Source: Trichodesmium erythraeum IMS101 (GTDB lineage: Bacteria > Cyanobacteriota > Cyanobacteriia > Cyanobacteriales > Microcoleaceae). From it: a DNA stretch of 32,000 nucleotides. Below the pieces are notes generated by a model. It did no database searches, had not been told where the DNA came from, and saw only the letters and a program-made list of their open reading frames with translations. The position numbers and the translations under genes are program-made. The DNA lies in contig NC_008312.1 in assembly GCF_000014265.1 (NCBI RefSeq), positions 900,001-932,000 on the forward strand. Reading direction: 5' to 3'. Of this stretch, positions 1 through 27,460 are shown piece by piece; the first letter of the stretch is position 1; each line of letters starts with the position of its first letter.

Positions 1-360
1 GCAGGGAATATCGAACAAAATGCTGGTAATAATACTAACCTAAATCAAACTGCAGGAGAGAATATAAATGTAGGGAATATCGAACAAAATGCGGGTAATA
101 ATACTAACCTAAATCAAACTGCAGGAGAGAATATAAATACAGGGGATATCGAACAAAATGCGGGTAATAATACTAACCTAAATCAAACTGCAGGAGAGAA
201 TATAAATACAGGGGATATCGAACAAAATGCGGGTAATAATACTAACCTAAATCAAACTGCAGGAGAGAATATAAATACAGGGGATATCGAACAAAATGCT
301 AGTAATAATACTAGTATTTATCAAATTGCAGAAGGAGAGATTAATACACCAGTCATTAAT
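1..360 (+). repeat. 69-nt (23-aa) tandem coding repeat, AGNNTNLNQTAGENINxGxIEQN type; array truncated by the window start
   Basis: Direct period check: gcagggaatatc at 1 and gtagggaatatc at 70. Unit starts at 22, 91, 160, 229, with a degenerate unit at 298. Confidence 0.9.
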
Positions 361-1950
361 CAAACTTTCGGTAATGAGACTACGCTCAATCAAATATCAG
401 TAAGAGATGTTAATACACCAGTAATTTCTAATAACAATATACCTAATAATCAAGGACTTAATCAAGAAAATTTCTCTAATAATAACAATAACAATATTGA
501 GAATAATTCCACTACAAATTCCTCAAACAATAAAAACATTTCATCAACCCTTACCCAGTCTCAAAGGTCTGAATTAATTTCAACTTCTACCCCCAGCAAC
601 AATAACCAAACAACTAATACAAATACAGCCCAAGAACAAACAGAATCATCTATTAATAGTACAACGGATACCCAAAAAATCTTAAACATAATTGATACCG
701 TCAATACCAATTCCTTGACAGTTGCGACTGGTTCAGACCAAGTAATAACAATGTTAGAACAAAACCTTACTAACGAATATTCTAATTACTTTGGAACAGA
801 TTTTAAGGAACAATTTATTAACCAAAAAACACCCCGAGAAATCTTAACCGATATGGCTGCTAAAACAGGAAAAGAATCTGCAGTTGTTTATATTAATGCT
901 TATCCAGAGGAATTACAAATAATTTTATATACCAAAGATGGTCAACCTATTCTTAAAACTATCCCGGAAGCTAACCGTAAAAAATTAGAGAAAGTAGTTA
1001 TAAATTTCCTCAAATTAACGACAAGTCCTGCCTATCGTGATTTTAATAGTTATCTATCACCAGCAAAACAATTATATGATTGGTTCATTGCACCTATATC
1101 AGCAGAATTAGAAGCAGCAAATATCGATACCTTATTGTTCAGTATGGGTGAAGGTTTACGTATTTTACCAGTGGCAGCATTACATGATGGAAAGCAATTT
1201 TTAATTGAGAAATATAGCCTAAGTTTAATTCCGAGTATCAGCTTAATGGATACAAATTATCGCCCACTTCAAGGTACTCAAGTATTAGCTATGGGAGCTA
1301 GTAAATTTATCAATGAAAAACCTTTACCAGCAGTACCTGTGGAGATAGAAACAATTTCTGAACAGTTATGGGAAGGTAGTAAATTTTTAAACGAAGAATT
1401 TACCAAGAATAATTTGTTAACTCAAAGAAAAAATTATCCCTATCCTATTATTCACTTAGCTACCCATGCAACATTTAATAGAGGAAAACCTAGTAATTCT
1501 TACATTCAGCTATGGGGTAATGAACAAATAAAGTTAGACCAAGTGCGGGAGTTGGGTTGGAGTACCCCATCGGTTGACTTGTTGGTATTGTCTGCTTGTC
1601 GCACTGCTGTAGGAAATAGAGAAGCGGAATTAGGGTTTGCAGGGTTAGCAGTAGCAGCGGGAGTGAAGTCAGCCTTAACGAGCCTTTGGACTGTAAGTGA
1701 TGAAGGGACATTGGCATTAATGACAGAGTTTTATACTCATTTGAATGATGCTAAGATCAAGTCAGAGGCATTAAGACAGGCGCAGTTAGCAATGCTGCAA
1801 GGGCAGGTGCTTATTACAGGTGGGGAGTTGAGGGGAAGCAGCACTCGTGGTGGGGTGGAGCTACCTTCGGCGTTCGCAAATGTAAACAATCAAAATTTAT
1901 CTCATCCTTATTACTGGGCAGGGTTTACTATAGTTGGTAGTCCTTGGTAA
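1..1950 (+). CDS. 3' part (649 codons plus stop) of giant TPS-CHAT exoprotein, array copy A; the 5' end lies outside the window
   Basis: Open in frame from nt 1. Position 1 corresponds to 10942 of copy B (offset 10941). The 411-aa tail in the ORF track is identical to the C-terminus of the 2629..12891 ORF. CHAT His at 1465-1467 and Cys at 1597-1599. Confidence 0.9.
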   Translation, partial: AGNIEQNAGNNTNLNQTAGENINVGNIEQNAGNNTNLNQTAGENINTGDIEQNAGNNTNLNQTAGENINTGDIEQNAGNNTNLNQTAGENINTGDIEQNASNNTSIYQIAEGEINTPVINQTFGNETTLNQISVRDVNTPVISNNNIPNNQGLNQENFSNNNNNNIENNSTTNSSNNKNISSTLTQSQRSELISTSTPSNNNQTTNTNTAQEQTESSINSTTDTQKILNIIDTVNTNSLTVATGSDQVITMLEQNLTNEYSNYFGTDFKEQFINQKTPREILTDMAAKTGKESAVVYINAYPEELQIILYTKDGQPILKTIPEANRKKLEKVVINFLKLTTSPAYRDFNSYLSPAKQLYDWFIAPISAELEAANIDTLLFSMGEGLRILPVAALHDGKQFLIEKYSLSLIPSISLMDTNYRPLQGTQVLAMGASKFINEKPLPAVPVEIETISEQLWEGSKFLNEEFTKNNLLTQRKNYPYPIIHLATHATFNRGKPSNSYIQLWGNEQIKLDQVRELGWSTPSVDLLVLSACRTAVGNREAELGFAGLAVAAGVKSALTSLWTVSDEGTLALMTEFYTHLNDAKIKSEALRQAQLAMLQGQVLITGGELRGSSTRGGVELPSAFANVNNQNLSHPYYWAGFTIVGSPW

Positions 1951-2565: not shown

Positions 2566-2631
2566 AATACCTATAAATTAAATAAAAGTCAATATAATTT
2601 TCAACAAATACCATAATAACAAAAACCTTTG

Positions 2632-2715
2632 ATGAAACCTAATAGCTCAAAACTCTGCACCATAACAGCTCTGAGTTTAATACTAGGCACATTAGCCACC
2701 ACTCCCGCTAACTCC
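2632..2715 (+). other. Sec-type signal peptide of copy B
   Basis: MKPNSSKLCTITALSLILGTLATTPANS|QP: basic N-region, hydrophobic core, small residues before the predicted cleavage site. Confidence 0.7.
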
Positions 2716-5700
2716 CAGCCCATAACCCCGGCTAAGGACGGTACCAATACTACTGTTACTCCACAGGGCCAACAATTTCATATTAAAGGTGGGACTCGCA
2801 GTGGTACTAATGTATTTCACAGCTTTGATAAGTTTAATGTGCACTCTGGTCAAACTGCCAACTTTGTCACGACCCCGGATACTCGCAACGTTCTCGGACG
2901 AGTTAAGGGAGGCGCTTCTTATATTAATGGTCTTATTCAGGTTCTAGGTAGCAGCTCTAACCTCTTCTTAATGAACCCCGCAGGCATAATGTTTGGCCCA
3001 AACGCCAGCCTCAATGTACCTGCGTCATTCAGTGTTACTACTGCTACTGGTATTGGTTTTGACCAGAATAATTTCTGGTTCAAGGCTATGGGCACTAATG
3101 ACTATTCAAATTTGCTCGGAAGCCCTAGTGGTTATAGGTTTGATGTTTCTAAACCTGGTTCTATTGTTAATGAAGGAAGTTTAACTTTAAATTCTGGAGA
3201 AAATTTAACTTTATTAGGGGGAACTGTTGTTAATACAGGGGAACTCTCTAGCCCTGGGGGTAATATTACTGTCACTGCTGTCGAAGGTGGTAGTACCCTG
3301 AAAATATCTCAACCAGGACATTTGTTAAGTTTAGAGGTACCCCTAGAGGATGGAGAAAATATTTCTAATATTGATCCTCTATCTTTACCAGAGTTATTAG
3401 CTGGTGGAGGAGATATCGTTGAGGCTACATCTGTTATTGTTAAAGAGAATGGTGATGTGGTTTTGACCGGTTCAAATACTATGGTGGCTGAGACTCCGGG
3501 AACGGCAACTATTTCGGGAAAGATAGATGTATCAACTACTGCTAGTTCTCTCCAAAATGAGGGGGGTGCTAGTTTTGGAGGCCAAGTTAATGTGTGGGGC
3601 GATCGCGTGGCTCTTATAGATACAAATATCAAGGCTGATGGCAAAAATGGGGGTGGAACTGTATTAATAGGAGGAGATTTTCAAGGGTTGGGTATAGTTC
3701 CTAATTCTCAGCATACTTTTGTTAATAATAATTCATTTATTTCTGCGGATGCTATCACAAATGGTGATGGAGGTCAAGTTAGAATTTGGTCGGATGGTAT
3801 TACTAATTTTGCGGGAAATATTAGTGCTAAAGGCGGCACATCTTCGGGAAATGGAGGGTTGGTTAAAATTGGGGGAAAAGAACAATTAATCTTTGATGGA
3901 AAGGTGGATGTTACTGCGGCTTTAGGGACTGAAGGTACGATTTTATTGGACCCAGAAAGTGTGACGGTGGGAGAGGATAATTCGGAAGGTGAAAAAGAAA
4001 TTGTAGATGATAATTCCGAGGTTTCTGAGACAGAAAATACTGATAATTATAATGGGGAAATTGTAGATGATAATTCGGAGGTTTCTGAGACAGAAAATAC
4101 TGATAATTTCAAAGACAAAAAACCAGACACTCCTAAAGACAAAAAACCAGACACTCCTCTTGATCCTTTTGCTGCTGATGAGAATTCTGATGTGACTATT
4201 TCGGCGGATAATTTAGGGGAATTATCGGGGAATGTGATTATTGATGCTGATAATGATATTACCATAAATGAAAGGATAGAAACTGATTCTTCTGTGGAGT
4301 TAAAGGCTGGTCGAAGTATTAATATAAATGCGGATATTGATACTAAGAGTGGAAATGGGAATATTGATTTATTGGGTAATAATGATGAGATGAATTTGGC
4401 GAACCGTTCTGATGGGAAAGGTTCAATAAATCAATTGGATGGAACAATTTTAAATGCTGGAAGTGGTGGAATTAATATTAAGTTGGGAAGTTTAGGGGAG
4501 GTAGGTGATATAAATCTGGGAAATTTAAGGACGACAGGGAAGGTTTTGGTTGATGCGAATGGGGGAAATATTGTTAGAGTTTCTGAGAATTCTTTGATAA
4601 ATGCGGGGAGTGTTTTGTTTAGAACTTCTGGGAATGGAGGTATAGGTTTTCTTGGTCAACCTTTGCGGTTAGATGTGCAGAATTTGGAGGCGGTTTCTGG
4701 TAGTGGTGGGGTGTTTTTTGATGTGGGAAATGTGAATATTGGTGGTGTGAGTGAGGATGTGGTTGGTATTGCTACTTTTGGAGGAGATGTTGATATTAAG
4801 AGTGCGGGAAATGTGACTTTAAATGAAACTATTTCTAGTAATGAGGTTGTGGAGAATAATTCTGAGGGGGGAACTACGGAAAATACGGAGGTTGTTGATG
4901 GAGGTGGTGGGATAAACATTGAAGCGGCGGGAGATATTGTGGCTACGGGTAGTGGTATTAAAGGTGGTGGGGAAGCTGTTTCTTTGTCTGGGACTAATAT
5001 TAGGATAAATGATGAATTTGATGAGACTTCTGGGGATGCGGATGTTAAGTTGTCGGCCACAAATGATATTGTTGTTGAGGATATAGAGGATGATGTGTTG
5101 GAGTTTATGCCTGGGAGTGGGGAGATAGAATTTCGTGCGGATAAAGATGGGGATGGGTTTGGTCTTGTGAAGATGTTGGATAATAAGCCGGATGTTGGGA
5201 GTAACCCTGATATTTTTGAGAATGGGGCGGATACTATTAAGACTAATGGGCGAGGTTTGACTATTGCTGGTGCTGGTCTGGTTTTGGGGAATGTTGATAC
5301 TTCTTGGTTGCCTATTTATTCTGGTGGTGGGGAGTTGTTGAAGGCGATCGATGTGGATAAGGGGGGGGCGATACCTCCGGAAGGTACAGAAGGTACTGCA
5401 ACATTTACTTTTACTGTAGATGGTGACTTGGGAACTGTAGAAAATATAGATGTTCGCTTTTCTGCGGCACATACTTGGGATGAGGACTTAGACGTTAGTC
5501 TGGAATCACCCCAAGGGAAGGTAGTACAATTGTTTTCACGCGTTGGTGGTAGTGGAGAGAACTTTCAGGATACTGTGTTGGATGATGATGCTTCTAGAAG
5601 AATTATCAGTGGCAATGCTCCGTTTGATGGTACATATCGTCCCCAAGGAAGTTTAGCAGATTTTAATGGAGAAAATCCTAATGGAGCTTGGACTTTGAAG

Positions 5701-8700
5701 GTGACTGATACCTATCCCTGGGCAGATGATGGCACTTTATACAGAGCTGGTGAGACTGCTCCCTGGGGAACTGCCATAGGTACACAACTGTTGCTACGTA
5801 ATCCTCTTGTTAAGAGTGGTGGAGGAATAGGAAGTGGAAATGGTGGAGCGATCAACCTAGAAGCAACTCATGGTGATATTAGTGTAGGAAATATTCGTAG
5901 TTTGAGCGAAACTGCTAATGGGGGAAGAATTGACCTGAATGCTAATAAGGATATTATTTCTGGTCTGATTAATTCTAGTTCTGTGCAAGGAAATGGAGGA
6001 GCCATTGATTTGGATGCTGGTGGCGATATCACTACACAATACCTCAATTCCTGGTCCTCTTCCTGGGAAAAAGGCAACTCAGGAAATGGAGGAGCCATTG
6101 ATTTGGATGCTGGTGGCGATATCACTACACCATACCTCAATTCCGGGTCCTCTTCCAGCTCAGGTAACTCAGGAAATGGAGGAGCCATTGATTTGGATGC
6201 TGGTGGCGATATCACTACACAATACCTCAATTCCTGGTCCTCTTCCAGCTCAGGCAACTCAGGAAATGGAGGAGCCATTGATTTGGATGCTGGTGGCGAT
6301 ATCACTACACAATACCTCAATTCCGGGTCCTATTCCGGCTCAGGCAACTCAGGAAATGGAGGAGCCATTGATTTGGATGCTGGTGGCGATATCACTACAC
6401 AAGACCTCGATTCCGGGTCCGATTCCTGGGAAGGCAAGTCAGGAAATGGAGGAGCCATTGATTTGGTAGCTGGTGGCGATATCACTACACAAAACCTCGA
6501 TTCCAGGTCCGATTCCAGCTCAGGCAACTCAGGAAATGGAGGAGCCATTGATTTGGATGCTGGTGGCGATATCACTACACAATACCTCTATTCCGGGTCC
6601 TCTTCCTGGGAAAAAGGCAACTCAGGAAATGGAGGAGCCATTGATTTGGATGCTGGTGGCGATATCACTACACAATACCTCTATTCCGGGTCCATTTCCT
6701 GGTCAGGCAACTCAGGAAATGGAGGAGCCATTGATTTGGTAGCTGGTGGCGATATCACTACACAATACCTCTATTCCGGGTCCTATTCCTGGTCAGGCAA
6801 CTCAGGAAATGGAGGAGACATAACACTGAATGCAAAGACAATAAAATTCAACTCTCCACAACACGCAAATGGAGAAAAAATAAAAATCCATACATTTTCA
6901 GTAGGAAAAAAAGAATCTGAGGAAGGAAAAGGTGGAGACGTTAACATTACCACCAACAACCTCAGCAACACAGATATATTAACACTATCCTCCCACTCTG
7001 AATCAGGAAAAGTAACAATAGAAAGTAAGACACAAGAACCACTTCAAATCAAAGACTCATCCATTATCACTAGTGAACAAGTAACAGTAGAAATCTTCGA
7101 GGAACAAATACAAATAGAAACAGGAAATACCCAATCAGGCGACGTCTTCATCAACAGTGACGGCGACCTCAACCTAAACAACGTCACCATAGAAAGCGAC
7201 ACCAAAAGTAACCAAGCCGCCGGAGACGTCAACATCTACAGCCGCGGCAACATCACACTCGAAAACACCGACATCATCAGCACCACCAACTCCCAAGGCA
7301 ACGCCGGCCAAATCACCTTAGAAACCAACGAAAACATAGAACTCACCAACAACAGCAAAATCCTAGCCAACACAGAAGGAACCGGAAACGCAGGTCAAAT
7401 AAACATAGAAGCCAACAACCTCATCCTAGACCAAAACACCAAACTCATCACAGAAACCGCAAGAGCTGGAAACCCCGGAAACATAAAAATCCAAGCCAAC
7501 ACCATAGACATAGGAGAAGGCGCTAAAGCCAGCACCACAGTCTTAACAGGTTCAACCAGCACCGGAGAAGGAGGCAACATCACCATCAACACAAACAAAC
7601 TCAACGTCACAGGAAAACTGGGAATATTTGCCGAAACCGAAGCCAGCAAAAACGCCGGTACCCTTCGCATCTCACCCTACAAAAACAACCCCAACCTAGA
7701 CATAACCTTCAAAAACGACGGCTTCATCTCCGCCTCCACCTCATCCACAGGCAACGGAGGCAACATATTCATCAAAGCCCCAGAAAACATCAACATAACA
7801 GGCCAAGGGTTCATTGCCACCAAAACATCAGGCACAGGTAACGCCGGAATTATCGACATCAAAACCAACAACCTGAGAATATCCAATGGAGTCAAAATCA
7901 ATGCTTCCACAGAAGACCAAGGCAACGCCGGCGAAATCAAAATCAACACCACAGACTTCACCCTAGAAAAAGGAACAAGTCTAACAACAGAAACCAGCAG
8001 CGCCGGACTAGCCGGAAACATAGAAATAAACACCAAAAACCTCACAATAGGACAAAACGCCCAAATAAGTGCCACAGCACTAGAAGGAGCCAGCAACAAA
8101 GAAGCAGGCGGCAACATCACCATCAACGCCAATAACCTAGACATATCAGGAAAACTAGGAATATTCGCGGAAACCGCAGGAGAAAGCCCCGCAGGCACCC
8201 TCACCCTGAACCCATATAAAAACAACCCCAACCTAAATATAGAATTCAAACAACAAGGCTTCATTTCTGCTCGCACCAGCTCCAGTGGCAACGGAGGCAA
8301 CATAAATATTCAAGCACCAGAAAAAATCAACATTACAGGAGACGGAAAAATATCAGCCGAAACCACAGGGAGTGGAAATGCAGGCACCATCAATATCCAA
8401 ACAGAAAACCTCAACCTATCAGAGCAAGTAGCCATAAGTGCCGAAACCAACAGTCAAGGTCAAGCCGGAAACATTGAAATTAACTCCCAAACAGTTACCA
8501 TAGGAAAAGGCACAGAAATAAGTGCAACAGCCGGAAAAAAAGCAACAAGCACCGGAGATGGAGGCAACATCACCATCAACACCAACGACCTAGAAATCTC
8601 AGGAAAACTAGGAATATTCGCCGAAACCAAAGGAGCATCAAACGCCGGAACCTTAACCATCACCCCTTACCAAACCAACCCAGACCTCAATAGCAAAACC

Positions 8701-11700
8701 GACCCAAACATCAATATTACCTTCACCGACCAAGGCTTCATTTCTGCTAGCACCAAATCTCTGGGAAAGGGAGGCGACATCAATATATTGGCACCAGAAA
8801 ACATAAATATTACAGGAGATGGTCGGATAACAGTTGAAAGCGAAGGTAGTGGAGATGCAGGCATTATTAACATTGAAACAGAAAACCTGACAATAGCCGA
8901 AAACACAAAAATATCAGCATCCACATCCGACAGCGGAAACGGAGGCGAAATCAAAATTAACTCTAGCGAAACATTCCAACTACAAGGCCGAATATTAACA
9001 GAAACCACAGGAACAGGAGATGGAGGCATTATCAATATTGAAGCAGGAGAAATAACTGCGCCTAACAGCAAGATATCAGCTAAAACTACCGACGCCGGCA
9101 ACGCAGGTACAATAGATATTACTGCCCAAGGAGATATTACCACAGGAGTTGTTACCTCCGCCGCCAAAAATAAAAGAGAAACTGCTGACGGAGGTAGCAT
9201 TAGTATTACCAGTGAACAAGGAAAAATTAACGCCACCCGAGCAATTCAATCATTTTCAGAAGGAGGCAACGCCGGAAATGTTACCCTCAAAGCCCAAACA
9301 GACATAACCGCCAATACCATAAGTTCTCACGGAAAGCAAGAGGGTGGTCAAATAACCATCAGATCAGAAACCGGAAATATTGACACCAGTAGTGGTAAAT
9401 TCTTAGCCAACTATTCAGGAGGCGGTGACGCGGGAGACATTACAATGGAAGCACCCCAAGGAAATATTACCACAAATAATATCTATTCCTACGCCGACGG
9501 AGACGGAGGTCAAATAAACATTAAAGCCGGAAACAATATTAATATAGAAGCAAACAGTAATATTATTTCTGCATCAGAGCCACCAAGTGAGGGAAACAGT
9601 GACAAACAAGGAAAAGGAGGAGATATTACTCTAGAAGCAGGCAACAATATTAATACTACAGCAGCTAATATATATTCTGGTGCCAACGAGGGCGACACAG
9701 GACAAATTGATATTACTGCAGATAACGCAATAGAAACAGGTAAAATAGACTTAGCATCAGGTTTTGTCAGACAAGAAACAAAAGTAAACCAAAACCTGGT
9801 CCTCATCCCTAAACCAGGAGAACCAGCCACCAAAGGAAAAGCTGGAGACATCAGACTCCGCAGCAGAAACAGTACAATAGACACCACCGGTGGCACAATA
9901 AATTCTCGTTCCCCAGACGGCACCGGAGATATTATTATCAATGCCAAAGGAAATATTAGCACAGGGAAATTAGAAGCCAGCGCCCTTAACCCAGACAACC
10001 CTACCACAGGTGGAGACGTTAATATTACCAGCGAGCAAGGAGAAATTAATGCAACTCAAAACATAGAAACCTTCTCAGAAAAAGGTACAGCAGGAGATGT
10101 AAATATTACTGCAGCGGGTCATATCAATACAAACACCATTCGTTCAGATGGAATGGAACAGGGAGGAGATATTAATATTAGGAGCGATAGTGAAAGTAGC
10201 ATAGATGCAGCAGGAGCATTACAAACATATTCAGATGCAGGAACAGCAGGAAACGTCAACCTCACATCCCCAGGGAATGTTAATATTAGCGGCATTCGTT
10301 CAGAAGGAATGGAGCAGGGAGGTGATATTACACTGAAGAGTCAAGGAGGAGAAATTAACTCTACAGGCGATATAGACTCCTATTCAAAACAAGGAAAAGG
10401 AGGATACGTCAAAGTAGATGCCCCAGAAAGAGTAAATTTAGCAAATGTATCATCCTACGGCATGACAGAAAGTGGTGACTTAATTACTCAGAGCCAACAA
10501 GCAGAAGTTAATACAGGAAATGTCACAACACAAGCTTCAGAGGGAAAGAGTGGACGTATAGTCATCAACGGAACAGAAGTAGGTACGGGAAATTTAAGTT
10601 CTATCGCAGGAACAAGCGCCGGGGAAATTAATGTAGAAGCAACAGATGGTTCTATTGCCACCTATGATATAGAAATGACATCAGGTGGTACACTAGGAGC
10701 TTTAACACTGAGAGCACCAGAAAATATTAACACAGGAGACATTCGTCAAAAAGCAGGAGAGGGAGATGCGAATGCAAATATATTTTCAGGAGGAAACCAA
10801 ACCACAGGAAATATTAGTCAAGAAGCAGGCAATAATACTAACCTAAATCAAAATGCAGGAGAGAATATAAATGCAGGGAATATCGAACAAAATGCTGGTA
10901 ATAATACTAACCTAAATCAAACTGCAGGAGAGAATATAAATGCAGGGAATATCGAACAAAATGCTGGTAATAATACTAACCTAAATCAAACTGCAGGAGA
11001 GAATATAAATGTAGGGAATATCGAACAAAATGCGGGTAATAATACTAACCTAAATCAAACTGCAGGAGAGAATATAAATACAGGGGATATCGAACAAAAT
11101 GCGGGTAATAATACTAACCTAAATCAAACTGCAGGAGAGAATATAAATACAGGGGATATCGAACAAAATGCGGGTAATAATACTAACCTAAATCAAACTG
11201 CAGGAGAGAATATAAATACAGGGGATATCGAACAAAATGCTAGTAATAATACTAGTATTTATCAAATTGCAGAAGGAGAGATTAATACACCAGTCATTAA
11301 TCAAACTTTCGGTAATGAGACTACGCTCAATCAAATATCAGTAAGAGATGTTAATACACCAGTAATTTCTAATAACAATATACCTAATAATCAAGGACTT
11401 AATCAAGAAAATTTCTCTAATAATAACAATAACAATATTGAGAATAATTCCACTACAAATTCCTCAAACAATAAAAACATTTCATCAACCCTTACCCAGT
11501 CTCAAAGGTCTGAATTAATTTCAACTTCTACCCCCAGCAACAATAACCAAACAACTAATACAAATACAGCCCAAGAACAAACAGAATCATCTATTAATAG
11601 TACAACGGATACCCAAAAAATCTTAAACATAATTGATACCGTCAATACCAATTCCTTGACAGTTGCGACTGGTTCAGACCAAGTAATAACAATGTTAGAA

Positions 11701-12891
11701 CAAAACCTTACTAACGAATATTCTAATTACTTTGGAACAGATTTTAAGGAACAATTTATTAACCAAAAAACACCCCGAGAAATCTTAACCGATATGGCTG
11801 CTAAAACAGGAAAAGAATCTGCAGTTGTTTATATTAATGCTTATCCAGAGGAATTACAAATAATTTTATATACCAAAGATGGTCAACCTATTCTTAAAAC
11901 TATCCCGGAAGCTAACCGTAAAAAATTAGAGAAAGTAGTTATAAATTTCCTCAAATTAACGACAAGTCCTGCCTATCGTGATTTTAATAGTTATCTATCA
12001 CCAGCAAAACAATTATATGATTGGTTCATTGCACCTATATCAGCAGAATTAGAAGCAGCAAATATCGATACCTTATTGTTCAGTATGGGTGAAGGTTTAC
12101 GTATTTTACCAGTGGCAGCATTACATGATGGAAAGCAATTTTTAATTGAGAAATATAGCCTAAGTTTAATTCCGAGTATCAGCTTAATGGATACAAATTA
12201 TCGCCCACTTCAAGGTACTCAAGTATTAGCTATGGGAGCTAGTAAATTTATCAATGAAAAACCTTTACCAGCAGTACCTGTGGAGATAGAAACAATTTCT
12301 GAACAGTTATGGGAAGGTAGTAAATTTTTAAACGAAGAATTTACCAAGAATAATTTGTTAACTCAAAGAAAAAATTATCCCTATCCTATTATTCACTTAG
12401 CTACCCATGCAACATTTAATAGAGGAAAACCTAGTAATTCTTACATTCAGCTATGGGGTAATGAACAAATAAAGTTAGACCAAGTGCGGGAGTTGGGTTG
12501 GAGTACCCCATCGGTTGACTTGTTGGTATTGTCTGCTTGTCGCACTGCTGTAGGAAATAGAGAAGCGGAATTAGGGTTTGCAGGGTTAGCAGTAGCAGCG
12601 GGAGTGAAGTCAGCCTTAACGAGCCTTTGGACTGTAAGTGATGAAGGGACATTGGCATTAATGACAGAGTTTTATACTCATTTGAATGATGCTAAGATCA
12701 AGTCAGAGGCATTAAGACAGGCGCAGTTAGCAATGCTGCAAGGGCAGGTGCTTATTACAGGTGGGGAGTTGAGGGGAAGCAGCACTCGTGGTGGGGTGGA
12801 GCTACCTTCGGCGTTCGCAAATGTAAACAATCAAAATTTATCTCATCCTTATTACTGGGCAGGGTTTACTATAGTTGGTAGTCCTTGGTAA
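2632..12891 (+). CDS. Giant secreted TPS-domain / beta-helix / P-domain / CHAT-protease protein, array copy B (3419 aa from ATG 2632; an in-frame TTG at 2629 gives the 3420-aa ORF in the track)
   Basis: Uninterrupted 10.26-kb ORF in AT-rich DNA. Signal peptide, TPS motifs, P-domain and CHAT motifs are all recognisable (see sub-features). Confidence 0.95.
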   Translation: MKPNSSKLCTITALSLILGTLATTPANSQPITPAKDGTNTTVTPQGQQFHIKGGTRSGTNVFHSFDKFNVHSGQTANFVTTPDTRNVLGRVKGGASYINGLIQVLGSSSNLFLMNPAGIMFGPNASLNVPASFSVTTATGIGFDQNNFWFKAMGTNDYSNLLGSPSGYRFDVSKPGSIVNEGSLTLNSGENLTLLGGTVVNTGELSSPGGNITVTAVEGGSTLKISQPGHLLSLEVPLEDGENISNIDPLSLPELLAGGGDIVEATSVIVKENGDVVLTGSNTMVAETPGTATISGKIDVSTTASSLQNEGGASFGGQVNVWGDRVALIDTNIKADGKNGGGTVLIGGDFQGLGIVPNSQHTFVNNNSFISADAITNGDGGQVRIWSDGITNFAGNISAKGGTSSGNGGLVKIGGKEQLIFDGKVDVTAALGTEGTILLDPESVTVGEDNSEGEKEIVDDNSEVSETENTDNYNGEIVDDNSEVSETENTDNFKDKKPDTPKDKKPDTPLDPFAADENSDVTISADNLGELSGNVIIDADNDITINERIETDSSVELKAGRSININADIDTKSGNGNIDLLGNNDEMNLANRSDGKGSINQLDGTILNAGSGGINIKLGSLGEVGDINLGNLRTTGKVLVDANGGNIVRVSENSLINAGSVLFRTSGNGGIGFLGQPLRLDVQNLEAVSGSGGVFFDVGNVNIGGVSEDVVGIATFGGDVDIKSAGNVTLNETISSNEVVENNSEGGTTENTEVVDGGGGINIEAAGDIVATGSGIKGGGEAVSLSGTNIRINDEFDETSGDADVKLSATNDIVVEDIEDDVLEFMPGSGEIEFRADKDGDGFGLVKMLDNKPDVGSNPDIFENGADTIKTNGRGLTIAGAGLVLGNVDTSWLPIYSGGGELLKAIDVDKGGAIPPEGTEGTATFTFTVDGDLGTVENIDVRFSAAHTWDEDLDVSLESPQGKVVQLFSRVGGSGENFQDTVLDDDASRRIISGNAPFDGTYRPQGSLADFNGENPNGAWTLKVTDTYPWADDGTLYRAGETAPWGTAIGTQLLLRNPLVKSGGGIGSGNGGAINLEATHGDISVGNIRSLSETANGGRIDLNANKDIISGLINSSSVQGNGGAIDLDAGGDITTQYLNSWSSSWEKGNSGNGGAIDLDAGGDITTPYLNSGSSSSSGNSGNGGAIDLDAGGDITTQYLNSWSSSSSGNSGNGGAIDLDAGGDITTQYLNSGSYSGSGNSGNGGAIDLDAGGDITTQDLDSGSDSWEGKSGNGGAIDLVAGGDITTQNLDSRSDSSSGNSGNGGAIDLDAGGDITTQYLYSGSSSWEKGNSGNGGAIDLDAGGDITTQYLYSGSISWSGNSGNGGAIDLVAGGDITTQYLYSGSYSWSGNSGNGGDITLNAKTIKFNSPQHANGEKIKIHTFSVGKKESEEGKGGDVNITTNNLSNTDILTLSSHSESGKVTIESKTQEPLQIKDSSIITSEQVTVEIFEEQIQIETGNTQSGDVFINSDGDLNLNNVTIESDTKSNQAAGDVNIYSRGNITLENTDIISTTNSQGNAGQITLETNENIELTNNSKILANTEGTGNAGQINIEANNLILDQNTKLITETARAGNPGNIKIQANTIDIGEGAKASTTVLTGSTSTGEGGNITINTNKLNVTGKLGIFAETEASKNAGTLRISPYKNNPNLDITFKNDGFISASTSSTGNGGNIFIKAPENINITGQGFIATKTSGTGNAGIIDIKTNNLRISNGVKINASTEDQGNAGEIKINTTDFTLEKGTSLTTETSSAGLAGNIEINTKNLTIGQNAQISATALEGASNKEAGGNITINANNLDISGKLGIFAETAGESPAGTLTLNPYKNNPNLNIEFKQQGFISARTSSSGNGGNINIQAPEKINITGDGKISAETTGSGNAGTINIQTENLNLSEQVAISAETNSQGQAGNIEINSQTVTIGKGTEISATAGKKATSTGDGGNITINTNDLEISGKLGIFAETKGASNAGTLTITPYQTNPDLNSKTDPNINITFTDQGFISASTKSLGKGGDINILAPENINITGDGRITVESEGSGDAGIINIETENLTIAENTKISASTSDSGNGGEIKINSSETFQLQGRILTETTGTGDGGIINIEAGEITAPNSKISAKTTDAGNAGTIDITAQGDITTGVVTSAAKNKRETADGGSISITSEQGKINATRAIQSFSEGGNAGNVTLKAQTDITANTISSHGKQEGGQITIRSETGNIDTSSGKFLANYSGGGDAGDITMEAPQGNITTNNIYSYADGDGGQINIKAGNNINIEANSNIISASEPPSEGNSDKQGKGGDITLEAGNNINTTAANIYSGANEGDTGQIDITADNAIETGKIDLASGFVRQETKVNQNLVLIPKPGEPATKGKAGDIRLRSRNSTIDTTGGTINSRSPDGTGDIIINAKGNISTGKLEASALNPDNPTTGGDVNITSEQGEINATQNIETFSEKGTAGDVNITAAGHINTNTIRSDGMEQGGDINIRSDSESSIDAAGALQTYSDAGTAGNVNLTSPGNVNISGIRSEGMEQGGDITLKSQGGEINSTGDIDSYSKQGKGGYVKVDAPERVNLANVSSYGMTESGDLITQSQQAEVNTGNVTTQASEGKSGRIVINGTEVGTGNLSSIAGTSAGEINVEATDGSIATYDIEMTSGGTLGALTLRAPENINTGDIRQKAGEGDANANIFSGGNQTTGNISQEAGNNTNLNQNAGENINAGNIEQNAGNNTNLNQTAGENINAGNIEQNAGNNTNLNQTAGENINVGNIEQNAGNNTNLNQTAGENINTGDIEQNAGNNTNLNQTAGENINTGDIEQNAGNNTNLNQTAGENINTGDIEQNASNNTSIYQIAEGEINTPVINQTFGNETTLNQISVRDVNTPVISNNNIPNNQGLNQENFSNNNNNNIENNSTTNSSNNKNISSTLTQSQRSELISTSTPSNNNQTTNTNTAQEQTESSINSTTDTQKILNIIDTVNTNSLTVATGSDQVITMLEQNLTNEYSNYFGTDFKEQFINQKTPREILTDMAAKTGKESAVVYINAYPEELQIILYTKDGQPILKTIPEANRKKLEKVVINFLKLTTSPAYRDFNSYLSPAKQLYDWFIAPISAELEAANIDTLLFSMGEGLRILPVAALHDGKQFLIEKYSLSLIPSISLMDTNYRPLQGTQVLAMGASKFINEKPLPAVPVEIETISEQLWEGSKFLNEEFTKNNLLTQRKNYPYPIIHLATHATFNRGKPSNSYIQLWGNEQIKLDQVRELGWSTPSVDLLVLSACRTAVGNREAELGFAGLAVAAGVKSALTSLWTVSDEGTLALMTEFYTHLNDAKIKSEALRQAQLAMLQGQVLITGGELRGSSTRGGVELPSAFANVNNQNLSHPYYWAGFTIVGSPW
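2719..3348 (+). other. TPS / haemagglutination-activity domain (Pfam Haemagg_act type) of copy B
   Basis: GTNVFHSFDKFNVHSGQTANF...NVLGRVKGGASYINGLIQV..SNLFLMNPAGIMFGPNASLNVPASFSVTT. These are the canonical TpsA motifs, including the NPNGI-like NPAGI. Confidence 0.85.
3997..4158 (+). repeat. Acidic 60-nt coding repeat (EIVDDNSEVSETENTDNYNG) x2, followed by a 24-nt repeat (KDKKPDTP) x2
   Basis: Units start at 3997 and 4057. aaagacaaaaaaccagacactcct occurs at 4111 and 4135. Confidence 0.85.
5392..5800 (+). other. Proprotein-convertase P-domain (Pfam P_proprotein type) embedded mid-protein, copy B
   Basis: GTATFTFTVDGDLGTVENIDVRFSAAHTWDEDLDVSLESPQGKVVQLFSRVGGSGENFQDTVLDDDA...FDGTYRPQGSLADFNGENPNGAWTLKVTDT..DDGTL. 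This is the classic P-domain signature (H.w.gDL.v.L.SP.Gt...L......g.nf..t.fdD.A......F.G.y.P...L..F.G....G.W.L.v.D....d.G.L). Confidence 0.8.
5989..6810 (+). repeat. 90/93-nt (30/31-aa) tandem coding repeat, 9 full units plus a terminal degenerate unit: GNGGAIDLDAGGDITTQ + variable Ser/Tyr/Trp-rich loop
   Basis: ggaaatggaggagccattgat recurs at 5989, 6082, 6172, 6262, 6352, 6442, 6532, 6625, 6715 and 6805 (the last is GNGGDITL). Confidence 0.95.
7570..9050 (+). repeat. Three tandem ~150-180-aa macro-modules, themselves built of ~20-aa GNAG-x-I-x-I rungs
   Basis: GGNITIN(T/A)N.L..(S/T)GKLGIFAET....AGTL...PY..NP.L.I.F...GFISA.T.S.G.GG.I.I.APE.INITG.G recurs with module starts at 7570, 8107 and 8560. 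Confidence 0.8.
10825..11300 (+). repeat. 69-nt (23-aa) Asn/Gln-rich tandem coding repeat, 6 units plus 1 degenerate unit
   Basis: Unit starts at 10825, 10894, 10963, 11032, 11101, 11170 and a degenerate one at 11239. Consensus AGNNTNLNQTAGENINxGxIEQN. Confidence 0.95.
11365..11655 (+). other. Asn/Ser/Thr/Gln-rich low-complexity linker between the stalk and the CHAT domain
   Basis: NNNIPNNQGLNQENFSNNNNNNIENNSTTNSSNNKNISSTLTQSQRSELISTSTPSNNNQTTNTNTAQEQTESSINSTTDTQ. Few hydrophobic residues and no repeat period. Confidence 0.7.
11800..12888 (+). other. CHAT (caspase-like) protease domain, copy B
   Basis: LRILPVAALHDG..FLIEKYSLSLIPS...PIIHLATHATF (His codon 12406-12408) ...VDLLVLSACRTAVG (Cys codon 12538-12540) ...SALTSLWTVSDEGT..LM..FY......K.EALRQAQLAML....SHPYYWAGFTIVG. 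Confidence 0.85.
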
Positions 12892-13146
12892 TAAAAATGA
12901 CCAACTAACATTCAACATCTTCAAATGTAGTCAACTTATTCGTAATTTTTGGGTTCAGATCATGTGGATGTGTAATTAATTTTGTACGACGGCTTCTTTA
13001 GCAAACCCTAAATATTAATTGATAGAGGGAGGGATTTTTTGATCACATTTGTTATGTGTTGTCAATTATCGACAAAATCTCAAAATATTTGTGTCAACGA
13101 CAATATATCATTTAAACGTTGAAGCGTCAATAGTAGGAATAGCACT

Positions 13147-13401
13147 GATAATATTGACACTCTCAGTAGCGGTAGTAGTTTCACGGGTTTTGTTGAAATA
13201 ACAGATACCAACAACTATTATCGCTTTTATCTAAGTGGGGAAAGGGAGTTTGAGCTTACTCTCAAGGACTTAAGCGGTTATGCATACGTATAATTACTCA
13301 GCAGCACTGGTGCTACTATCATTAGTTCTACCAAGACTGGTAGAAGTTCTGAGAGCATCAGTAAAACTTTTAATTCGGTTACATATCATAACCTTGGATG
13401 A
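13147..13401 (+). pseudogene. Second copy of the PPC-like domain relic (spacer of unit 2)
   Basis: Same sequence as 2206-2460 shifted by 10941. Confidence 0.55.
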
Positions 13402-13477
13402 AAAAGATACTAAATGGTTTCTATACAACAATTTCAAGACCCATAATTAAAATGACAAATAAATTTTAAATAATTTC

Positions 13478-13506
13478 TTGATTTTTGTATGGTAAGGATT
13501 TATAAT
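13478..13506 (+). promoter_or_regulatory. Candidate sigma70-type promoter for giant gene C
   Basis: Same TTGATT-17-TATAAT element as 2537-2565, shifted by 10941. Confidence 0.3.
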
Positions 13507-13572
13507 AATACCTATAAATTAAATAAAAGTCAATATAATTTTCAACAAATACCATAATAACAAAAACCTTTG

Positions 13573-16500
13573 ATGAAACCTAATAGCTCAAAACTCTGCA
13601 CCATAACAGCTCTGAGTTTAATACTAGGCACATTAGCCACCACTCCCGCTAACTCCCAGCCCATAACCCCGGCTAAGGACGGTACCAATACTACTGTTAC
13701 TCCACAGGGCCAACAATTTCATATTAAAGGTGGGACTCGCAGTGGTACTAATGTATTTCACAGCTTTGATAAGTTTAATGTGCACTCTGGTCAAACTGCC
13801 AACTTTGTCACGACCCCGGATACTCGCAACGTTCTCGGACGAGTTAAGGGAGGCGCTTCTTATATTAATGGTCTTATTCAGGTTCTAGGTAGCAGCTCTA
13901 ACCTCTTCTTAATGAACCCCGCAGGCATAATGTTTGGCCCAAACGCCAGCCTCAATGTACCTGCGTCATTCAGTGTTACTACTGCTACTGGTATTGGTTT
14001 TGACCAGAATAATTTCTGGTTCAAGGCTATGGGCACTAATGACTATTCAAATTTGGTCGGAAACCCTAGTGGTTATAGGTTTGATGTTTCTAAGCCTGGT
14101 TCTATTGTTAATGAAGGGAATTTAACTTTAAAACCCCAAGGAAATTTAACTTTGTCGGGTGGAACTGTTGTTAATACAGGGGAACTCTCTAGCCCTGGGG
14201 GTAATATTACTGTCACTGCTGTCGAAGGTGGTAGTACCCTGAAAATATCTCAACCAGGACATTTGTTAAGTTTAGAAGTACCCCTAGAGGATGGAGAAAA
14301 TATTTCTAATATTGATCCTCTATCTTTACCAGAGTTATTAGCTGGTGGAGGAGATATCGTTGAGGCTACATCTGTCGTTGTTAAAGAGAATGGTGATGTG
14401 GTTTTGAATGGTTCAAATACTATGGTGGCTGAGACTCCGGGAACGGCAACTATTTCGGGAAAGATAGATGTATCAACTACTGCTACTTCTCTTAAGGAGA
14501 AGGGGCGTGTTCCTAGTCAGAGAAAGAAGGAGGGTGCTGCTAGTCCAGGAAAGATAGATGTTCCTCCTTCCCTCAAGGAGAAGAGAGATGTTGCTAAGGC
14601 CGGTAAAGTTAATGTGTGGGGCGATCGCGTGGCTCTTATAGATACAAATATCAAGGCTGATGGCAAAAATGGGGGTGGAACTGTATTAATAGGAGGAGAT
14701 TTTCAAGGGTTGGGTATAGTTCCTAATTCTCAGCATACTTTTGTTAATAATAATTCATTTATTTCTGCGGATGCTATCACAAATGGTGATGGAGGTCAAG
14801 TTAGAATTTGGTCGGATGGTATTACTAATTTTGCGGGAAATATTAGTGCTAAAGGCGGCACATCTTCGGGAAATGGAGGGTTGGTTAAAATTGGGGGAAA
14901 AGAACAATTAATCTTTGATGGAAAGGTGGATGTTACTGCGGCTTTAGGAACTAAAGGTAGGATTTTATTAGACCCAGAAAGTGTGACGGTGGGAGAGGAT
15001 AATTCGGAAGGTGAAAAGGAAATTGTCGAGGATAATTCGGAGGTTTCTGAGACAGAAAATACTGATAATTATGATGGGGAAATTATTGAGGATAATTCCG
15101 AGGTTTCTGAGACAGAAAATACTGATAATTATAATGGGGAAATTGTCGAGGATAATTCCGAGGTTTCTGAGACCGAAAATACTGATAATTCCACAACAAA
15201 AAATACTGATAATTTAGAAGATAAAGAAACAGAAAATCCTCTTGATCCTTTTGCTGCTGATGAGAATTCTGATGTGACTATTTCGGCGGATAATTTAGGG
15301 GAATTATCGGGGAATGTGATTATTGATGCTGATAATGATATTACCATAAATGAAAGGATAGAAACTGATTCTTCTGTGGAGTTAAAGGCTGGTCGAAGTA
15401 TTAATATAAATGCGGATATTGATACTAAGAGTGGAAATGGGAATATTGATTTATTGGGTAATAATGATGAGATGAATTTGGCGAACCGTTCTGATGGGAA
15501 AGGTTCAATAAATCAATTGGATGGAACAATTTTAAATGCTGGAAGTGGTGGAATTAATATTAAGTTGGGAAGTTTAGGGGAGGTAGGTGATATAAATCTG
15601 GGAAATTTAAGGACGACAGGGAAGGTTTTGGTTGATGCGAATGGGGGAAATATTGTTAGAGTTTCTGAGAATTCTTTGATAAATGCGGGGAGTGTTTTGT
15701 TTAGAACTTCTGGGAATGGAGGTATAGGTTTTCTTGGTCAACCTTTGCGGTTAGATGTGCAGAATTTGGAGGCGGTTTCTGGTAGTGGTGGGGTGTTTTT
15801 TGATGTGGGAAATGTGAATATTGGTGGTGTGAGTGAGGATGTGGTTGGTATTGCTACTTTTGGAGGAGATGTTGATATTAAGAGTGCGGGAAATGTGACT
15901 TTAAATGAAACTATTTCTAGTAATGAGGTTGTGGAGAATAATTCTGAGGGGGGAACTACGGAAAATACGGAGGTTGTTGATGGAGGTGGTGGGATAAACA
16001 TTGAAGCGGCGGGAGATATTGTGGCTACGGGTAGTGGTATTAAAGGTGGTGGGGAAGCTGTTTCTTTGTCTGGGACTAATATTAGGATAAATGATGAATT
16101 TGATGAGACTTCTGGGGATGCGGATGTTAAGTTGTCGGCCACAAATGATATTGTTGTTGAGGATATAGAGGATGATGTGTTGGAGTTTATGCCTGGGAGT
16201 GGGGAGATAGAATTTCGTGCGGATAAAGATGGGGATGGGTTTGGTCTTGTGAAGATGTTGGATAATAAGCCGGATGTTGGGAGTAACCCTGATATTTTTG
16301 AGAATGGGGCGGATACTATTAAGACTAATGGGCGAGGTTTGACTATTGCTGGTGCTGGTCTGGTTTTGGGGAATGTTGATACTTCTTGGTTGCCTATTTA
16401 TTCTGGTGGTGGGGAGTTGTTGAAGGCGATCGATGTGGATGAGGGGGGGCCAATACCTCCGGAAGGTACAGAAGGTACTACAACATTTACTTTTACTGTA

Positions 16501-19500
16501 GATGGTGACTTGGGAACTGTAGAAAATATAGACGTTCGCTTTTCTGCGGCATATACTCACACTGGGGACTTAGACGTTAGTCTGGAATCACCCCAAGGGA
16601 AGGTAGTACAATTGTTTGCAGGTGTTGGTCGTTGGGGAGATAACTTTCAGGATACTGTGTTAGATGATAATGCTTCTAGAAGTATTGGCATAAGCAATGC
16701 TCCGTTTGATGGTAGATATAGTCCCCAAGGAAGTTTAGTAGATTTTAATGGAGAAAATCCTAAGGGAATTTGGACTTTGAAGGTAAAGGATACCAATATA
16801 TTTTCAAATTTGGCTGATGGTAATTTATACAGAGCTGGTGAGACTGCTCCCTGGGGAACTGCCATAGGTACACAACTGTTGCTGCATAACCCTCTTGTTA
16901 AGATTGCTGGAGGAATAGAAAGTGGAAAAGGTGGAGCGATCAACCTAGAAGCAACTCATGGTGATATTAGTGTGGGAAATATTCGTAGTTTGAGCGAAGC
17001 TGCTAATGGGGGAAGAATTGACCTGAATGCTAATAAGGATATTATTACTGGTCTGATTAATTCTAGTTCTGCTTCTGTGCAAGGAAATGGAGGAGCAATT
17101 GATTTGGATGCTGGTGGCAATATCACTACACAATCCCTCAATTCTAGGTCCTATTCCTGGGAAGGCAACTCAGGAAATGGAGGAACCATTGATTTGGATG
17201 CTGGAGGCAATATCACTACACAATCTCTCTATTCCAGCTCCTATTCCGGGTCTGGCAACTCAGGAGATGGAGGAGCAATTGATTTGGATGCTGGTGGTGA
17301 TATCACTACTACACAAGACCTTGATTCCAGCTCCTATTCCTGGGAAAGCAACTTAGGAAATGGAGGAGCAATTGATTTGGATGCTGGTGGCAATATCACT
17401 ACACAAGTCCTTGATTCCAGATCCTTTTCCTGGGAAGGCAACTCAGGAAATGGAGGAGCAATTGATTTGGATGCTGGTGGCAATATCACTACACAAATCC
17501 TTGATTCCTGTTCCTATTCCGGGTCTTACGACTCAGGAAATGGAGGAGCAATTGATTTGGTAGCTGGCGGCGATATCACTACACAAAACCTCTATTCCGA
17601 TTCCTTTTCCAGGTCTGGCAACTCAGGAAATGGAGGAGCAATTGATTTAGTAGCTGGTGGCGATATCACTATACAAGACCTCTATTCCTTCTCCTATTCA
17701 GGATCTGGCAACTCAGGAAATGGAGGAGACATAACACTGAATGCAAAACAAATTAACCCTCCAGAAGACGGAAATGCAGAAAAACTAACAATCTATACAT
17801 TTTCAGCAGGAAAAAAAGAATCTGAGGAAGGAAAAGGTGGAGACGTTAACATTACCACCAACAATCTCAGCAACACAGACATATTAACACTATCCTCCCA
17901 CTCTGGATCAGGGAAAGTAACAATAGAAAGTCAGACACAAGAACCACTTCAAATAAAAGACTCATCCATTATTACTAGTGAAAAAATAACAATAACAATG
18001 CCTTGGGGTGAAGAAATACAAGTTGAAACAGGAGATACCCAATCAGGGGACGTCTCCATTAACAGTTCCGGCGACCTCAACCTCAGCAACGTCACCATAG
18101 AAAGCGACACCGAAAGTAACCAAGCCGCCGGAGACGTCAACATCTACAGCCGCGGCAACATCACACTCGAAAACACCGACATCATCAGCACCACCAACTC
18201 CCAAGGCAACGCCGGCCAAATCACCTTAGAAAGCAACCAAAACATAGAACTCACCAACAACAGCAAAATCCTAGCCAACACAGAAGGAACCGGAAACGCA
18301 GGTCAAATAAACATAGAAGCCAACAAACTCATCCTAGACCAAAACACCAAACTAATCACAGAAACCGCAAGAGCTGGAAACCCCGGAAACATAAACATCC
18401 AAGCCAACACCATAGACATAGGAGAAGGCGCTAAAGCCAGCACCACAGTCTTAACAGGTTCAACCAGCACCGGAGAAGGAGGCAACATCACCATCAACAC
18501 AAACGAACTCAACGTCACAGGAAAACTCGGAATATTTGCCGAAACCGAAGCGAGCAAAAACGCCGGTATCCTTCGCATCTCACCCTACAAAAACAACCCC
18601 GACCTAGACATCACCTTCAAAAACGAGGGCTTCATCTCCGCCTCCACCTCATCCACAGGCAACGGAGGCAACATATTCATCAAAGCCCCAGAAAACATCA
18701 ACATAACAGGCCAAGGGTTCATTGCCACCAAAACATCAGGCACAGGTAACGCCGGAATTATCGACATCAAAACCAACAACCTGAGAATATCCAATGGAGT
18801 CAAAATCAATGCTTCCACAGAAGACCAAGGCAACGCCGGCGAAATCAAAATCAACACCACAGACTTCACCCTAGAAAAAGGAACAAGTCTAACAACAGAA
18901 ACCAGCAGCGCCGGACTAGCCGGAAACATAGAAATAAACACCAAAAACCTCACAATAGGACAAAACGCCCAAATAAGTGCCACAGCACTAGAAGGAGCCA
19001 GCAACAAAGAAGCAGGAGGCAACATCACCATCAACGCCAATAACCTAGACATATCAGGAAAACTAGGAATATTCGCGGAAACCGCAGGAGAAAGCCCTGC
19101 AGGCACCCTCACCCTGAACCCATATAAAAACAACCCCAACCTAAATATAGAATTCAAAGAAAAAGGCTTCATTTCTGCTCGCACCACCTCCAGTGGCAAC
19201 GGAGGCAACATAAATATTCAAGCACCAGAAAAAATCAACATTACAGGAGACGGAAAAATATCAGCCGAAACCACAGGGAGTGGAAATGCAGGCACCATCA
19301 ATATCCAAACAGAAAACCTCAACCTATCAGAGCAAGTAGCCATAAGTGCCGAAACCAACAGTCAAGGTCAAGCCGGAAACATTGAAATTAACTCCCAAAC
19401 AGTTACCATAGGAAAAGGCACAGAAATAAGTGCAACAGCCGGAAAAAAAGCAACAAGCACCGGAGATGGAGGCAACATCACCATCAACACCAACGACCTA

Positions 19501-27370: not shown

Positions 27371-27460
27371 AATTATTTTTTTTTGAATATAGACAAAAAT
27401 CAGCTATTAGTTTATTTGGATAGCGATCGCTTACCAAAGCTAAAAATTAAAAAATATTTT

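Follow-up and report, generated by a model that had tools for sequence, protein, structure and literature searches.

Clustered replacements in the P-domain of tandem giant exoproteins of Trichodesmium erythraeum IMS101 suggest a possible recognition surface

The tandem array and its P-domain modules

We analysed a 32,000-nucleotide stretch of the Trichodesmium erythraeum IMS101 genome (NC_008312.1, positions 900,001 to 932,000; hereafter the window), whose forward strand carries a tandem array of genes for giant exoproteins of the two-partner secretion (TPS) type. The array comprises a partial copy, A, and two further copies, B and C, with a repeat unit of about 10.94 kb (Table 1). Our subject is the P-domain embedded in B and C, in which the two copies differ by clustered amino acid replacements directly after 1.2 kb of identity. 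Each exoprotein consists, in order, of a signal peptide, a TPS domain, a beta-rich shaft, one P-domain, several repeat arrays and a C-terminal CHAT domain; B has the N-terminal signal peptide and TPS domain by which TpsA proteins are recognized. The sequence of B is exactly that of ABG50017.1 / WP_011610411.1 (T. erythraeum IMS101), named "filamentous haemagglutinin family outer membrane protein", for which the deposited start is the ATG at 2632, and the sequence of C is exactly that of ABG50018.1 / WP_044136324.1, named "CHAT domain-containing protein".

Table 1. Coordinates of the array copies, their domains and the regions compared between B and C (positions within the window)
Feature	Position	Strand	Evidence or remark
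P-domain module of B, aa 906-1057 (AIDVDKGG...GTQLLLR)	5344..5799	+	PF01483, E 1.5e-9 to 1.9e-11
P-domain module of C, aa 953-1106	16426..16887	+	PF01483, E 1.4e-10; alignment
Variable patch 1, aa 948-952	5470..5484	+	HTWDE (B), YTHTG (C), HTYGA (Tara allele); selected sites 950, 952
Variable patch 2, aa 970-977	5536..5559	+	SRVGGSGE (B), AGVGRWGD (C); selected site 975
Variable patch 3, aa 987-995	5587..5613	+	DASRRIISG (B), NASRSIGIS (C); selected site 993
Variable patch 4, aa 1026-1036	5704..5736	+	TDTYPWADDGT (B), KDTNIFSNLADGN (C), 2-codon indel; selected site 1031
Identity tract, B side	4155..5358	+	1204 nt, no differences from C 15237-16440
Copy A, 3' part	1..1950	+	Leaves the window at its left edge; C-terminal repeat array and CHAT domain; frame-1 translation
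Copy B	2629..12891	+	3420-codon open frame from TTG; giant TPS-domain exoprotein, C-terminal CHAT
Copy C	13570..23676	+	3368 codons; architecture as in B; open reading frame list
TPS secretion domain of B, aa 37-248	2737..3372	+	PF05860, E 7e-38; TIGR01901, E 3e-21
C-terminal short-repeat array of B (NAGNNTNLNQTAGENIN type)	10708..11430	+	Most diverged stretch of the pair
CHAT (caspase-like) domain of B, aa 3125-3418	12001..12882	+	PF12770, E 1.8e-69, 234.8 bits vs cutoff 24

The Pfam family P_proprotein (PF01483) matches residues 937-1037 of B, with scores of 38.3 bits for the whole protein, 44.3 bits for the B segment and 41.6 bits for the C segment against a cutoff of 21. The limits of the module, from IDVDxGGPIP to APWGTAIGTQLL, were set by alignment with stand-alone P-domain proteins of about 210 residues. 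An AlphaFold2 model of the domain, for which the input was a shallow alignment of B, C and six database relatives, contains eleven strands (predicted local distance difference test score, pLDDT, 85.2; predicted template modelling score, pTM, 0.84). When this model was compared with the PDB by Foldseek, the top 27 matches were the P-domains of furin, Kex2 and the Aeromonas sobria protease (ASP), at probability 1.0 and with query-normalized template modelling scores of 0.50-0.60; the sequence profile also matches the ASP P-domain. The initial annotation of the patch, which from the letters alone had called it a P-domain with a jelly-roll fold, is therefore borne out. A larger model covering residues 740-1110 was of low confidence (pLDDT 68, pTM 0.47), and only its P-domain part matched anything.

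The P-domains of the kexin/furin convertases and the A. sobria serine protease (PDB 1p8j, 2id4, 3hjr) share the Pfam family and the jelly-roll fold with the exoprotein module. The convertase domain stands beside a subtilase, whereas that of the exoproteins is an insert in a TPS protein with no subtilase to stabilize. The lack of a subtilisin/kexin catalytic domain had been remarked on as a departure from the normal arrangement. The absence itself is real, since B yielded no Peptidase_S8 match either whole or in segments, but it is not abnormal, because in bacteria the domain is commonly found without a subtilase. A profile run against 1.84 billion representatives recovered 26,248 protein clusters with a P-domain at E<=1e-3, many of them giant proteins with up to 13 copies of the domain. 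Peptidase_S8 was found in none of the ten top relatives checked, which carry TPS domains, RTX repeats or a type IX secretion system (T9SS) sorting tail instead, and the nearest relatives of the exoprotein domain sit in TPS, RTX, T9SS-tail or PEP-CTERM proteins. The combination of TPS domain and P-domain recurs in Nostoc, Coleofasciculus, Dapis, Okeania and others.

Three proteins of about 210 residues, from Armatimonadota (P0002), Phycisphaeraceae (P0004) and a source not assigned to a taxon (P0006), are built from this P-domain subtype together with a signal peptide and a PEP-CTERM anchor. They are 49-54% (P0002, P0004) and 39% (P0006) identical to the exoprotein module, including its end motif APWGTA.GTQL (APWGTAIGTQL), and differ from it in being single-domain, PEP-CTERM-anchored proteins that are not part of a TPS filament. 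Such proteins show that the module can fold and be displayed alone, and that it occurs as an independent surface protein in unrelated phyla.

Divergence and selection in the P-domain

Copies B and C had been reported to be identical between 4159-5350 and 15241-16432, and we found no mismatch in these 1192 nt. The complete tract is slightly longer (Table 1) and ends 3-5 codons inside the P-domain module. It is one of seven identical runs of at least 200 nt between the two copies (1164, 343, 1204, 389, 892, 283 and 1065 nt). When the 626 differences were shuffled over the 9906 aligned nucleotides, the longest identical run averaged 107 nt and in 2000 permutations never exceeded 250 nt. Long runs of this sort mark a tandem array in which gene conversion is ongoing or duplication very recent, some blocks having been left unhomogenized; the 1204-nt tract is one homogenized, gene-conversion block, and its edge is one of several conversion boundaries. 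Copies A and B resemble each other much more closely than B and C do, at least over positions 1-2628 (A tail and A-B spacer) and 10942-13569 (B tail and B-C spacer), which differ at 0 of 2628 nt. This identity could reflect a very recent duplication, conversion or an assembly issue. Given the seven runs and the A/B identity, the 1.2-kb tract needs no explanation specific to the P-domain; what does call for one is the type of divergence seen in the next block.

The P-domain had been described as the sharpest substitution hot spot between the paralogues. This holds for non-repetitive, uniquely alignable sequence and for the ratio of non-synonymous to synonymous divergence (dN/dS, or omega), but not for the gene as a whole. 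Residues differ at 20.4% in the P-domain window and 9.8% over the whole gene, yet 8.9% of windows are more diverged than the P-domain window, and the GNSGNGG repeat region (B residues 1269-1422) ties with it at 21%. The C-terminal repeat array (B residues 2714-2910) reaches 70%, as the repeats there are of a different, unrelated type in each copy.

All of the B/C peptide pairs first noticed are present (HTWDED/YTHTGD, SRVGGSGEN/AGVGRWGDN, RRIISGN/RSIGISN, TYRPQGSLA/RYSPQGSLV and NGAWTLKVTDTYPWADDGT/KGIWTLKVKDTNIFSNLADGN), and the alignment confirms that the framework stretches are kept between the copies. The impression that most nucleotide changes alter the amino acid was also correct, the fraction being about 81% in the roughly 440 nt after the identity tract. 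Over residues 911-1057 of B, 35 codons differ from C in addition to a 2-codon indel, and Nei-Gojobori counts give 38.8 non-synonymous and 9.2 synonymous changes. The differing residues are clustered, with 15 neighbour gaps of at most two residues where 10.3 were expected (p=0.023), and 11 of the 35 codons (31%) carry two or three nucleotide changes, compared with 18% in other patches. Four variable patches were delimited (Table 1), of which the fourth is less certainly aligned owing to indels. Assignment of secondary structure to the AlphaFold2 model by DSSP placed 16 of 30 B/C differences in strand or helix and 14 in coil; many lie where strands end or on alternating residues of edge strands.

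Relatives for comparison came from a scan of representative genomes, which returned 41 loci. Nine of these, from Dapis and Okeania and 56-78% identical, supplied eleven more modules with their flanks, two of the Dapis proteins carrying two modules each. As for the P-domain of copy A and further Trichodesmium alleles, exact look-ups of B and C retrieved no recorded contig, and the same scan gave no 100% match, the best matches being Dapis and Okeania at 73-78%; a metagenome scan gave distant relatives only, and a protein search with the P-domain of C returned only a Tara fragment (P0007). A third Trichodesmium-like allele, present on two Tara/ENA contigs, has other sequences again in all four patches and almost unchanged framework DNA, of which stretches of up to 51 nt are identical in B, C and this allele.

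The Tara allele (L054 1-1686, L055 1-1359) has the look of a decaying copy. An insertion sequence transposase gene truncates it upstream, its P-domain contains a frameshift, and an internal deletion leaves a few repeats between the P-domain and a C-type repeat array with the CHAT linker. Three other proteins (L005 and L006 from Dapis sp., and P0001) contain two full modules of shaft segment plus P-domain, the second VRFSA motif lying about 360-390 residues downstream of the first. Two modules within single Dapis proteins indicate that duplication has occurred within genes as well as by duplication of whole genes.

The B/C differences fall on positions that are variable in the eleven close relatives (1.10 vs 0.48 bits, p=4e-6) and also in 26 distant modules (1.96 vs 1.11 bits, p=4e-5), and therefore avoid the conserved core. 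In a scan of 50-codon windows along B and C, dN/dS was 1.2-1.6 in the three P-domain windows and 0.3-0.5 in most other diverged windows. A pairwise codon-model likelihood gave an omega of 1.33 for residues 911-1057 and values of 0.38-0.39, each significantly below 1, for three other blocks. In a joint test the P-domain had an omega of 1.26 against 0.45 for the pooled background (likelihood ratio test, LRT, 7.27, p=0.007; count-based Fisher p=0.014). The ratio is thus elevated relative to other regions of the pair; the upstream flank has zero substitutions. This elevation is accompanied by a low dS of 0.09-0.11 in the P-domain, where most other diverged windows have 0.2-0.35. The dN between B and C (0.127) is about that between B and a Dapis protein (L004; 0.129), although dS is 3-4 times lower between B and C. 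To avoid circularity, we also divided the sites according to how variable they are in the eleven relatives other than B and C. Between B and C, omega was 3.97 at variable sites (dS 0.067) and 0.68 at conserved sites (dS 0.102). Since dS is similar in both classes, the synonymous clock is even and the excess consists of replacements at particular positions.

Across the family, pairwise omega for whole regions was 0.26-0.31 upstream, 0.46-0.51 in the P-domain and 0.45-0.52 downstream. We compared the site models M1a and M2a (F3x4) with purpose-written codon code on 13 modules from Trichodesmium, Dapis and Okeania. For the P-domain, M2a was favoured with an LRT of 63.9, placing 4% of sites at an omega of about 7; the LRT was 30.3 when B and C were left out and 16.1 (p=3e-4) when columns within two of a gap were left out. 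The flanks served as controls and neither was significant (upstream LRT 2.4, p=0.3; downstream LRT 5.9, p=0.053). The survey of orthologues that had been proposed at the outset therefore detected diversifying selection in the P-domain only, and not in its flanks. In B numbering, the sites under selection are residues 950, 952, 975, 993 and 1031, one or two per variable patch, and B and C differ at all five.

Recognition surface or alternatives

We lean towards the explanation that the P-domain is a displayed, autonomous beta-sandwich knob on a TPS-secreted filament, and that its variable patches form a recognition surface kept diverse by selection. Gene conversion homogenizes the copies over long tracts, between which older patches persist as a mosaic. 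The P-domain patch, beginning exactly at the end of the longest conversion tract, stands apart from the others in combining a low dS (about 0.1) with an amino acid divergence that matches the level seen against orthologues from other genera. Its excess replacements are concentrated in four short patches on a conserved jelly-roll, the same positions being recurrently replaced in Dapis and Okeania. The domain may then act as a surface-exposed specificity module that binds a ligand or receptor, either glycan or protein, or that is itself what others recognize, and diversifying selection would both drive the change in the patches and oppose their homogenization. The data show the mosaic, the fold, the raised dN/dS and the site-specific signal, whereas the surface exposure of the selected sites, the binding function and the selection against conversion are parts of this account that we infer. 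The earlier suggestion of a binding module is the best available reading but only partly demonstrated; overall, the result is suggestive rather than decisive.

Several observations weigh against a recognition surface shaped by selection. At the level of the whole P-domain, the B-C omega is not significantly above 1 (p=0.47), the excess of non-synonymous over synonymous changes in the pre-defined variable class is marginal (one-sided Fisher p=0.065), and another block, residues 1401-1700, has a relaxed omega of 0.78. The site-model code kept the neighbour-joining tree fixed apart from a single scaling factor, and recombination between paralogues is known to inflate tests of this kind; three of the five selected sites adjoin alignment gaps. 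The B/C differences are not enriched in coil under strict DSSP assignment (p=0.69), and the original description of the diversification as loop-focused is therefore overstated. Finally, no gene for a TpsB transporter (ShlB/FhaC, POTRA plus beta-barrel) was found within the 32-kb window, which begins inside copy A.

Relaxed constraint combined with mosaic gene conversion could produce the pattern without adaptation, if the patches tolerate almost any residue, the block happened to be missed by the most recent conversion and the edge is a chance conversion end-point. We consider this less likely, but it is a serious alternative and the strongest of those considered. It would fit a B-C omega indistinguishable from 1, a tract edge that is one of many in the mosaic, and a whole-domain omega of only 0.39-0.51 in the family. 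The sites that differ between B and C are also tolerant in the 26 distant homologues, where four of the five selected sites are mid-ranked for variability. However, M1a already includes a neutral class and is rejected for the P-domain in all three designs and for neither flank; omega between B and C is about 4 at independently defined variable sites; and multi-nucleotide changes are more frequent among the changed codons here than in other patches. Since the selected sites, except 993, are not the most variable in the distant set, lineage-specific selection fits better than mere tolerance.

It is rather improbable, though compatible with the same selection signature, that the P-domain is simply the most exposed knob of the protein, used by phages, grazers or antagonists as a receptor or epitope, and that the patches change to escape them. 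By its domain content the protein is TPS-secreted and surface-associated, and several divergent copies stand side by side, both of which suit evasion; however, sequence alone cannot separate evasion from ligand binding.

Somewhat more speculative again is the idea that the array is a cyanobacterial contact-recognition system, with the P-domain as the receptor-binding knob that sets specificity, equivalent in function to the receptor-binding domain of CdiA though of another fold, and the invariant CHAT caspase-like protease as an effector that is delivered or activated by contact. If so, divergent copies would give a filament several specificities, for kin and non-kin filaments, epibionts or colony partners, perhaps tied to colony formation or programmed cell death.

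Toxin delivery in the strict sense of contact-dependent growth inhibition (CDI), in which the P-domain would be the receptor-binding domain of a CdiA-type effector carrying the CHAT protease into neighbours, is very unlikely. The initial annotation had drawn a positional analogy with CdiA, and a loose positional analogy is the part of it that stands. In CdiA of E. coli EC93 the receptor-binding region is modular and central, spanning Arg1358-Phe1646 (Ruhe et al. 2017, PMC5371414), and both CdiA (EC93/EC536) and the P-domain exoproteins are TPS-secreted filamentous proteins with an internal modular region that differs between similar proteins. The N-terminal TPS domain and the succession of variable internal domain and C-terminal peptidase also recall CDI, and a CdiA-like protein with a cysteine-peptidase toxin has been described (bioRxiv 10.64898/2026.05.07.723447). 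StbD, like B and C, is a TPS-type exoprotein ending in a cysteine peptidase, but its peptidase is of the C39 type and it has an immunity protein, StbI, and the receptors OmpF and YajC, whereas B and C end in CHAT and none of these was seen.

Target specificity by the internal region has been demonstrated for CdiA and is supposed for the P-domain exoproteins; the folds are unrelated, that of the P-domain being a jelly-roll; and the P-domain lies at about 27-31% of the exoprotein's length rather than centrally. Its variation consists of point substitutions in patches of one fold and not of the swapping of unrelated domains. We found no match to Fil_haemagg or Fil_haemagg_2 (FHA-1/FHA-2 repeats; PF05594, PF13332) at E<=1 in any of seven B segments, and no PT-VENN pretoxin domain in B, whose C-terminus is CHAT. 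That terminus is not polymorphic, since the CHAT of the visible A tail equals that of B and the CHAT of C differs from it at only 5 residues, all in the last ~70 (B residues 3354-3415). Directly downstream, the 679-nt spacer holds only open reading frames of 25-56 codons, mostly with TTG starts, none of which is a convincing immunity gene, and a cdiB/TpsB gene is likewise absent from the window. B and C, on this comparison, are not CdiA proteins, and any analogy with CdiA would be functional at most.

Targeted hypermutation by a diversity-generating retroelement (DGR) or similar mutator, although DGRs are known in cyanobacteria (bioRxiv 10.1101/2020.05.26.117283) and the variability is highly localized with multi-nucleotide codon changes, was rejected as a negligible prospect for the window, because there is no adenine bias (B bases at variable sites G19 C13 T9 A7), no third template-like copy and no reverse transcriptase-like open reading frame of at least 200 codons with a YxDD motif in it, and the variable patches include indels.

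Multi-copy giant haemagglutinin-like exoproteins with a haemagglutination-activity (TPS) domain were described from filamentous cyanobacteria and Beggiatoa by Mussmann et al. (2007, PMC1951784), who named members in Trichodesmium, Nostoc and Anabaena and proposed, but did no more than propose, a role in gliding, sheath or filament formation. B and C belong to this protein class; the P-domain, the CHAT fusion and the pattern of selection are not described there.

The host proteins are thus already annotated as exoproteins, and the general pattern of a surface protein with positively selected patches on a conserved scaffold is familiar; it is the scaffold that is unfamiliar. Giant TPS-type exoproteins are among the largest genes of filamentous cyanobacteria, and a recognition role would identify one small domain as the part of these proteins in which specificity is under selection, providing a testable handle. 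The textbook role of the P-domain is that of a helper domain of proprotein convertases, and the module considered here would be a free-standing variable recognition scaffold in bacteria, outside that role. Trichodesmium is a globally important nitrogen fixer, and such a scaffold would be relevant at the molecular level to its colony formation, epibiont associations and sudden bloom collapse.

Other features of the array and its relatives

Besides the P-domain, the copies differ in their repeats. Before the CHAT linker, B has its NAGNNTNLNQTAGENIN-type array and C, at ~21550-22215, one of DQTAITGGGDAFIDNDAGDDLTTG type, in what resembles a cassette-like swap; the C type is also that of the Tara allele, and both types occur among Dapis loci. 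At 6076-6250, B has about 59 extra residues of a 30-residue GNSGNGGAIDLDAGGDITTQ repeat relative to C. Conversely, C has a 27-residue K/E-rich insertion after residue 308 and one extra acidic EDNSEVSETENTDN unit (14494-14600 and ~15040-15100). The approximately 2,000 residues of B between the P-domain and CHAT are repeat arrays without any Pfam match. Some Dapis/Microcoleaceae and Trichodesmium-like alleles carry a 49-residue insertion (EVEDKSG...YYFAEIxGKxYYVP...) at the N-terminal edge of the P-domain (L008 3303-3932, L009 1137-1760, P0007 and P0009), also without a Pfam match.

The right edge of the array is marked by a short open reading frame at 23660-23875, which overlaps the end of C and whose cadherin-like match (E 0.003) is weak and below the cutoff. 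In both spacers, A-B and B-C, the corresponding frame departs from it after some 10 codons. A PPC-domain remnant, suspected in the spacer from the sequence, received no Pfam support. Downstream of the array lie genes for a DUF1517 protein, a Rieske protein, a HisZ-like protein, HisG (ATP phosphoribosyltransferase), a ferredoxin and a pentapeptide-repeat protein. In Dapis M172 (L006 434-6164), the Rieske, HisZ-like and HisG genes are upstream of a single giant gene, whereas in Trichodesmium (26399-30585) they are downstream of the array; the neighbourhood is conserved but rearranged, with a tandem array in place of one two-module gene.

Our literature search found no paper linking filamentous haemagglutinin with a CHAT domain, and nothing relevant on CHAT domains in polymorphic toxins. 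Relatives in Coleofasciculus have a TPS plus P-domain protein without CHAT, and in one of them (L015, 14315-17245) a separate TPR-CHAT gene lies directly downstream of the TPS plus P-domain gene. At another locus (L011, 15427-18738), the gene adjoining the TPS plus P-domain gene encodes a CHAT-kinase-CHASE2 protein. These arrangements suggest a functional link between exoprotein and CHAT protease, with the two later fused in Trichodesmium and Dapis.

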